A stretch of DNA of 64,000 bases, taken from NCBI GenBank assembly GCA_951406725.2, contig OX597822.1:10540001-10604000 (forward strand), in the 5' to 3' direction. Both the position numbers and the translations under genes were made by a program. The notes under the pieces were generated by a model. The model saw nothing but the letters and a program-made list of their open reading frames with translations. It searched no databases and was not told where the DNA came from. Position 1 is the first letter of the stretch. Each line of letters begins with the position of its first letter. Below, in pieces: positions 32,737 through 33,073 of the stretch. The DNA comes from Octopus vulgaris (Eukaryota).

Positions 32737-32770
<34 letters not shown>

Positions 32771-32871
32771 GGATAAACACATAAATGTGAAACAAGGTGG
32801 AAAAAAGAGTACTCAAATACCAGTGGTAGAGTAATATGCTTTATTTTAAGCAGCAGAAAATTCAACAAAAT

Positions 32872-32909
32872 CTGTTACTCTGAGTTTCTCGTTGCCGTTC
32901 ATCAGACAG
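32872..32909 (-). ncRNA. Minimal type I hammerhead ribozyme
   Basis: Minus strand: CTGT-CTGATGA-a CG gcaa CG a-GAAA-CTC a GAG-TA-ACAG; canonical core, stem I CTGT/ACAG. Confidence 0.8.
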
Positions 32910-32939
32910 TTTTTGCTAGAAAAAACTGTCTAGCAAAAA

Positions 32940-32977
32940 CTGTCTGATGAACGGCAACGAGAAACTCAGAGTAACAG
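32940..32977 (+). ncRNA. Minimal type I hammerhead ribozyme
   Basis: CTGT-CTGATGA-ACGGCAACGA-GAAA-CTCAGAG-TA-ACAG; predicted cleavage after GTA (32973). Confidence 0.8.
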
Positions 32978-33073
32978 ATTTTGTTGAATTTTCTGCTGCT
33001 TAAAATAAAGTATATATATATATATATATACGTTTATATATTTGTTATGCAAGATTTTTTATACATATATATA

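Follow-up and report, generated by a model that had tools for sequence, protein, structure and literature searches.

The closest described relatives of the locus examined here are the Penelope-like elements (PLEs) of the Hydra clade, whose definition, with all the protein motifs listed below, comes from Craig et al. (2021; PMC8557442). That clade, which includes Hydra-2_Amil, Hydra-1_Obim and Penelope-13_HM, shares with our locus and its parent element these protein motifs, a (TA)n target and a hammerhead ribozyme motif in the end repeat (pLTR). The hammerhead of Hydra-2_Amil agrees with ours in stem I, core and palindromic stem III, and in Penelope-13_HM a 5' inverted copy places hammerheads on both strands; Hydra-1_Obim differs from our parent element in its hammerhead and, as compared by eye, in its protein. 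The Penelope elements of Adineta vaga and Drosophila virilis (PMC3846280, PMC2377424) likewise have head-to-head repeats, palindromic junctions and an optional tail on one arm, and their pLTRs, with which that of our parent element can be compared, hold TATA and initiator-like motifs or a mapped start. Earlier work has thus described pLTR hammerheads, insertion into (TA)n and inverted pLTRs of which one bears a tail (PMC8557442, PMC3846280, PMC2377424), and PMC8557442 counts the way in which PLEs come by their inverted and tandem ends among the questions still open.

A biochemical view of the process is offered by Poseidon PAc of the green anole (Frangieh et al. 2024; PMC11167929), whose protein nicks both strands of AT-rich DNA, extends each of them, and begins reverse transcription at two positions inside the RNA, one at either boundary of the tail. 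Our parent element resembles it in the AT-rich target and in the two starts bounding the tail; the template hammerhead of Poseidon was uncleaved, and the cDNAs of our family likewise cross the cleavage site. Poseidon nonetheless belongs to a different clade, its hammerhead overlaps the start of the open reading frame (ORF) whereas ours lies in a non-coding leader, and the main text of PMC11167929 does not treat inverted insertions. The dual hammerheads of metazoan PLEs (Cervera and de la Pena 2014; PMC4209133) also form close pairs on opposite strands, with a palindromic helix III suited to dimers, but at a spacing of ~100-700 bp as opposed to ~40 bp here. The metazoan non-LTR retrozymes (bioRxiv 10.64898/2026.07.22.740005) have in common with our locus a type I hammerhead, a non-coding copy and a connection to PLEs. 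They are, however, direct tandem repeats of a non-coding unit, and we rejected this assignment because the arms of our locus are inverted and come from a protein-coding element. The passages of PMC13282606 that name recently active Penelope families in an octopus do not describe a hairpin layout. Here, we analyze such a layout within a window of 64,000 nucleotides of the Octopus vulgaris genome (contig OX597822.1, positions 10,540,001 to 10,604,000 of the forward strand), to which all coordinates refer unless the reference unit or another locus is named.

The hairpin locus and its parent element

The preliminary description of this window had claimed a perfect hairpin that holds two outward-facing hammerheads, each with an AATAAA downstream, and on these points it was accurate. 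The arms at 32839-32920 and 32929-33010 are exact reverse complements of 82 bp separated by an 8-nt loop (32921-32928), and in the letters of the window complementarity ends immediately beyond them. Each arm holds the sequence CUGAUGA...GAAA...GUA, with core starts at 32944 (+) and 32905 (-), and each motif is followed by AATAAA 31 nt past the cleavage site and ~26 nt past stem I. The fold of 32839-32988 is far beyond chance (z = -20.9). The features of the locus are as follows.

32728..32768, no strand: (TA)n target microsatellite, left flank
32769..32838, minus strand: PLE tail, on one arm only, 70 nt (71 nt in the reference unit)
32839..32921, minus strand: tail-bearing arm, parent pLTR, reference 3212-3294
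32845-32840, minus strand: mirror copy of AATAAA on the tail-bearing arm, putative poly(A) signal
32872..32909, minus strand: type I hammerhead motif (stem I to stem I), predicted cleavage after 32876
32916..32943, plus strand: head-to-head junction, 8-nt loop 32921-32928 within a 14-nt direct duplication
32929..33010, plus strand: tail-less arm, parent pLTR, reference 3213-3294, stopping at the first fixed end
32940..32977, plus strand: type I hammerhead motif with 2-bp stem II and palindromic stem III, predicted cleavage after 32973
33004..33009, plus strand: AATAAA, one base short of the fixed element end, putative poly(A) signal
33011..33029, no strand: (TA)n target microsatellite, right flank
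33074..33285, plus strand: separate older insertion of a related subfamily in the same layout (short inverted arm, then pLTR and tail)

The left arm goes on outward as the 70-nt tail (32838-32769) and the right arm, which has none, meets the (TA)n tract at once. The tail is the sequence between two fixed ends of the element, and in tandem copies it continues into the 5' leader of the next unit. No annotated host gene was identified near the hairpin, and the ORFs of at least 120 aa in window 20000-46000 are mostly microsatellite read-through.

The window holds further palindromic and ribozyme-like sequence. The older insertion at 33074..33285 starts 63 nt to the right of the hairpin, is 85.6% identical over 146 nt and has a core that reads CCGACGA...GAAG. 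Related subfamilies (window 33136-33180 and the flanks of several loci) carry a U4-to-C change (CCGACGA or CCGATGA), and their position 11.1 is U, G or C. A head-to-head family member with both arms stopping inside the ribozyme lies at 28992-29153, and an old tail-arm fragment of the same family at 56632-56754. A second perfect hairpin (53998-54082; 40-bp arms, 5-nt loop) adjoins (TA)n, is unrelated in sequence, contains CUGAUGA...GAAA words and has a single-arm relative at 50422; it is possibly another PLE family in the same layout. There is also a perfect 37-bp palindrome without a loop at 60541-60614, extended imperfectly for ~40 nt each way, and hammerhead-core-like words with a hairpin stem II, unrelated to the hairpin family, occur at 5295 (+) and 36670 (-).

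The parent element could be assembled from other copies. Two of the first 30 loci run on upstream into an endonuclease-like frame, and tandem copies yield a unit of 3,365 nt with an uninterrupted ORF and ~1.1 kb of 3' non-coding sequence, near the end of which lies the hammerhead (core start 3228, predicted cleavage after 3257, in reference coordinates). The single ORF of 711 aa encodes a reverse transcriptase (RT) followed by a C-terminal endonuclease of the GIY-YIG type (YRDD at 344, GVVY at 580, YTG at 598). Searches of Pfam and of PDB sequences with this ORF gave no match, so that the endonuclease call rests on these motifs. The structural model of the protein (pLDDT 83) has telomerase TERT as its top fold match (E 3.7e-10), and 1,074 relatives were found among 7,996 candidates scored. 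The motifs of the Hydra clade are present as RWK at 37 and DKT (from DKG) at 113, as the CxCx5C linker CNCKNESSC at 562, as CxxC (CRLC) at 667 and as CxH (CRH) near 696; the endonuclease CCHH is absent, there being no cysteines between GVVY and YTG. Copies L082, L084 and L085 have F in place of the second cysteine. The insertion preference of the clade is seen in the copies sitting in (TA)n, and its pLTR features in the hammerhead within the pLTR, the partial tandem and inverted copies and the tail on one end.

Both hammerhead motifs of the hairpin are accordingly part of the pLTR of a Hydra-clade PLE, with the AATAAA of the right arm at the fixed element end. By its motifs, and with the references compared by eye, the parent is a new family within an established clade, and its insertion layout is likewise known already. 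It departs from the Hydra clade of PMC8557442 in its longer unit (3,365 nt, as against generally <3 kb), in its longer tail (71 nt, as against 30-40 nt) and in having thousands of near-identical copies with intact ORFs. At one locus (L081, 764-8298) the layout of the hairpin is found at full scale, as a 7.5-kb palindrome with 3.5-kb arms of 99.8% identity; the ORF is uninterrupted on one of these arms and frameshifted on the other. Judged from its sequence, the hairpin is almost certainly the shortest insertion form of this young element.

Copies, ends and junctions across the genome

Within the 2.8 Gb searched, the exact 34-nt ribozyme core has 3,674 matches (the reversed control has none), and at 683 loci cores are paired head to head within 30 nt. 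From an unselected series of 44 short pairs, 40 could be parsed and four could not; in 23 of these 40 the arms are perfect with a loop of no more than 16 nt, and in 14 the perfect arms reach at least 70 bp. In a sparse sample of 18 random 10-kb stretches no PLE arms were found, while the window has six matches. The hairpin is thus a real but common locus, ordinary for the genome of Octopus vulgaris. The claim that it was inserted very recently fits the data, since its tail arm is 98.7% and its short arm 98.9% identical to the reference unit with its intact ORF, and many genomic copies match the hairpin query at 100%.

The outer ends of these insertions are fixed, at reference 3294 for one arm and at 3365 for the other, which thereby includes the 71 nt of the tail. 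Across the whole genome, exact tail-less ends number 1,593 and tail-bearing arms 1,488; the tail leads directly into a following unit at 66 places, and 1,598 arms reach beyond the junction zone on its upstream side. A census was taken of the first 100 consecutive tail-less ends on one contig (C1), identified by an exact 31-nt match and hence representing the youngest subfamily only. Three ran off the fetched DNA and 71 had an inverted partner, which in 65 of the 71 ended at 3365. For the other 26 of 97, including three whose low-complexity partner matches were discarded, no partner arm was found; many of these adjoin (TA)n directly, and some may be misses of the script. Twin priming is therefore not universal.

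The lengths of the two arms of a pair go together. Both are short in 44 pairs and both long in 26, with a single mixed pair (Fisher p 1.5e-18), and within the long pairs the lengths are correlated (rho 0.70). The two arms are symmetric within 10 nt in 42 of the 71 pairs; the tail arm extends >10 nt further 5' in 16, and the tail-less arm does so in 13, by up to ~1 kb (L085, L091, L217). Among 168 arm 5' ends, 45 fall at 3209-3215, 33 at 3216-3235 and only five at 3100-3208, the short arms stopping sharply at 3211-3214, at an initiator-like A. Tandem read-through copies behave differently: only one of 59 upstream ends lies at 3209-3215, with no pile-up at 3211 (60 of the 66 read-through places were fetched, one was unparsed and 16 ran past the fetched 1.2 kb). 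Of 50 cDNAs at the upstream copy, 3 stop at 3209-3235, whereas at the copy on the priming side 44 of 93 do so (p 1.9e-7). The 5' ends of the upstream unit in these tandem copies (L252-L311) cluster at 3288-3296 (6/59) and 3151-3161 (5/59); the former cluster, at the upstream unit's first priming site, may arise where a cDNA meets a second bound complex.

Symmetric junctions with 1-6 nt of microhomology are the commonest form, and the commonest microhomology is supplied by the CTAG palindrome at 3214-3217. The junction of our hairpin has 10 extra bases that repeat local sequence, giving a 14-nt direct duplication that we infer to be a templated insertion at CTAG microhomology. This junction recurs once, at L251, where the tail belongs to the other arm and the flanks differ, which indicates that it forms afresh and does not descend from one master. 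In 63 short two-arm loci, a set that leans young because it includes the 30 best query matches, 14 variants, rare ones among them, are mirrored in both arms and 28 are on one arm. L098 and L099 are counted as two loci in this set; they lie 60 kb apart, have a common junction and private variants, and are probably a segmental duplication. The mirrored variants suggest that the arms were copied from one template at insertion and so were born identical, and the homogenisation that had been put forward to explain their identity is not needed, although two RNAs of one source locus or arm-to-arm conversion would also be expected to mirror variants. At L097 (583-666 and 1894-1976), two 83-nt pieces of the pLTR in inverted orientation, both with the same non-standard ends (3223-3305), flank ~1.2 kb without a match to the element, possibly a capture or a later insertion.

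Folding of the ribozyme and alternative readings of the hairpin

All pairs of a hammerhead (the core C3-A9 and G12-A15.1, the NUH site and the three helices) can form in the motif of the arms, and an identical motif is present in 195 of 261 sampled arms; a search of the window against Rfam gave no family at gathering score. Stem I has 4 bp, and stem II has a mere 2 bp, fewer than in the Hydra clade (PMC8557442), its GCAA loop being closed by an A.A mismatch. The motif lacks the G10.1-C11.1 pair and the stable helix II of a type I hammerhead, and its helix II is much shorter than those of PMC4209133. Published Hydra hammerheads also have symmetric mismatches at the place of this pair, but with at least three pairs behind them (PMC8557442). 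Within the whole hairpin, on either strand, the hammerhead fold is ~79 kcal/mol less stable than the duplex, and a single arm alone favours another fold by ~5.6 kcal/mol, these being energies of equilibrium folding that leave tertiary contacts and protein aside; two arms are able to pair via the palindromic stem III. It had been proposed that a transcript in either direction would carry a sense ribozyme and a poly(A)-like signal. This holds for the letters; for the folded RNA it probably does not, because the antisense arm is transcribed first whichever way the hairpin is read and the duplex is so much the more stable. Read-through transcripts of the host are accordingly predicted to form 82 bp of double-stranded RNA in which the ribozyme is buried and unable to fold, from a copy that has no upstream promoter motif.

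The element's own insertions speak to cleavage as well. Since most cDNAs extend across the cleavage site, the RNAs from which they were copied had not been cut there. In the test for a hammerhead-cleaved template, five pairs were found in which neither arm begins before 3257 (p 1.9e-5); a pile-up of ends precisely at 3258 was not demonstrated, and among the 50 very short palindromes listed of 173 the ends fall, by eye, on both sides of the cleavage site without a clear edge.

Three other readings of the hairpin as a unit must be weighed against its identity as a PLE insertion. That it is a selected two-way cassette, of which the ribozyme and poly(A) signal cut or end host transcripts, might be suggested by the intact core nucleotides of both arms and the AATAAA after each; but the same layout is present at the 683 loci, the fold is unfavourable in the hairpin and in the lone arm alike, and monomeric metazoan PLE hammerheads did not cleave (PMC4209133) or needed protein to do so (PMC11167929), so that we regard such a function as highly improbable. 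A non-autonomous family of its own, SINE- or MITE-like and copied whole from a few palindromic masters, would account for the hundreds of near-identical copies and for the few junctions that recur many times. Against it, junctions differ widely among the 50 loci listed, junctions and arms grade continuously into arms of kilobases, one junction is found with the arms swapped, and on the tail side the inverted repeat does not reach the end of the insertion; we consider such a family quite improbable. The 70-nt tail outside the repeat, together with junctions that vary and arm lengths from tens of bases to kilobases, led us to reject a MITE or other DNA transposon. As for a fold-back artefact of assembly or library, none of the contigs listed bridges the exact junction with 31 nt on both sides. 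Nevertheless, the hairpin meets (TA)n at both outer ends at fixed sites specific to the family, only one of its arms has the tail, the arms differ at 17 of 40 sister loci, and contigs of other DNA runs (X5, X12, X17, X18) have related head-to-head joints. Such family-wide ends and aged sister copies make an artefact very unlikely.

Origin of the two arms

We consider it likely that, in this young Hydra-clade PLE, both strands of the (TA)n target are nicked, two primings take place on one RNA, and the products are joined head to head. The element's endonuclease would nick both strands of the tract; two reverse transcriptions would then be primed 71 nt apart, at 3294 and 3365, on a single RNA molecule; both cDNAs would run off its 5' end; and their ends would anneal at the CTAG palindrome, with the 14-nt templated insertion in the case of our hairpin. 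RNA of the short class would start at A3211, probably from the many arms that keep the upstream sequence, and long insertions would come from read-through tandem RNA. The two fixed ends fit directly the two internal start sites of PMC11167929. Since two independent RNAs predict many short/long pairs and a single one was seen, we infer two primings on one RNA; that both use the same RNA and end by 5' run-off has, in our judgement, at least an even chance of being right and perhaps a somewhat better one.

A promoter at the short-class edge would be consistent with the sequence around it: TATAGA lies at -27 relative to A3211, the upstream stretch is kept exactly in at least 858 arms, and the hard edge itself falls in CCATTCT, which we take to be initiator-like. 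Contigs from three runs guessed to be RNA cover 29-30 of the 30 bins of the unit (presence only), and one such contig crosses from the tail into the ORF without a difference. Near the predicted start these contigs have one adapter-like loose end, at L081 4867 as against the predicted 4845 (= 3211).

Two other routes to paired arms deserve comparison. In fold-back or self-priming, one strand (a cDNA, or an antisense RNA as invoked in PMC3846280) would loop at CTAG and copy itself. The mirrored variants, the prevalence of symmetric microhomology junctions and of arms symmetric within 10 nt, and the 10 extra bases at the window junction, which resemble a short fold-back, are all in its favor, and it may act at some junctions. 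A copied arm, however, cannot outreach its template, which must be the tail arm, and pure fold-back cannot give the 13 pairs in which the tail-less arm is the longer; this asymmetry argues against antisense self-priming as the sole route, the census favors two primings on one RNA, and we hold fold-back to be improbable as the general explanation. Rather less improbable, though still unlikely, is that short arms end by reverse transcription aborted near the priming complex, at a protein-bound or folded hammerhead and not at the RNA's 5' end. The stop does lie at the 5' base of an extended stem I, long tandem copies have no stop at 3211, and an RNA start at 3211 was not observed among the RNA-guessed contigs. 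Yet a structural block would be expected on the stem's 3' side, where RT enters, whereas the ends cluster on its 5' side with a hard edge exactly at the initiator-like motif, and 47 of 50 cDNAs crossed the upstream hammerhead. The excess of stops at the priming-side copy likewise argues against a plain structural stall, and the absence of stops at 3211 in tandem copies argues against a single mRNA starting there as the template of all insertions. What remains is either two classes of RNA or an abort linked to the priming complex.

In its fullest form, two primings on one RNA becomes a strong-stop reading in which a dimeric PLE enzyme acts on RNA that the pLTR promoter starts 17 nt before the core, with the priming sites in the first 155 nt and both strands extended to run-off. 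We regard this as evenly balanced between true and false. Full-text searches of a literature that mostly excluded subscription journals did not find same-RNA twin priming with 5' run-off proposed for PLEs.

If the strong-stop reading is true, about half of the element's insertions would be promoter-less hairpins that give double-stranded RNA, and the ORF would be carried only by read-through tandem RNA, which would explain why active PLEs need partial tandems; it would also take the place of antisense self-priming in explaining how the inverted repeats of PLEs arise. The census predicts the start of the RNA to the base (A3211). As a test bed, the family offers a young Hydra-clade element with intact ORFs, two base-exact priming sites and >1,500 recorded insertions, where the only in vitro PLE system that we found in the literature is that of a Poseidon element (PMC11167929). 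For the octopus, the hundreds of perfect hairpins of 70-85 bp are likely to be substrates for RNA editing or small-RNA pathways wherever host transcripts cross them.
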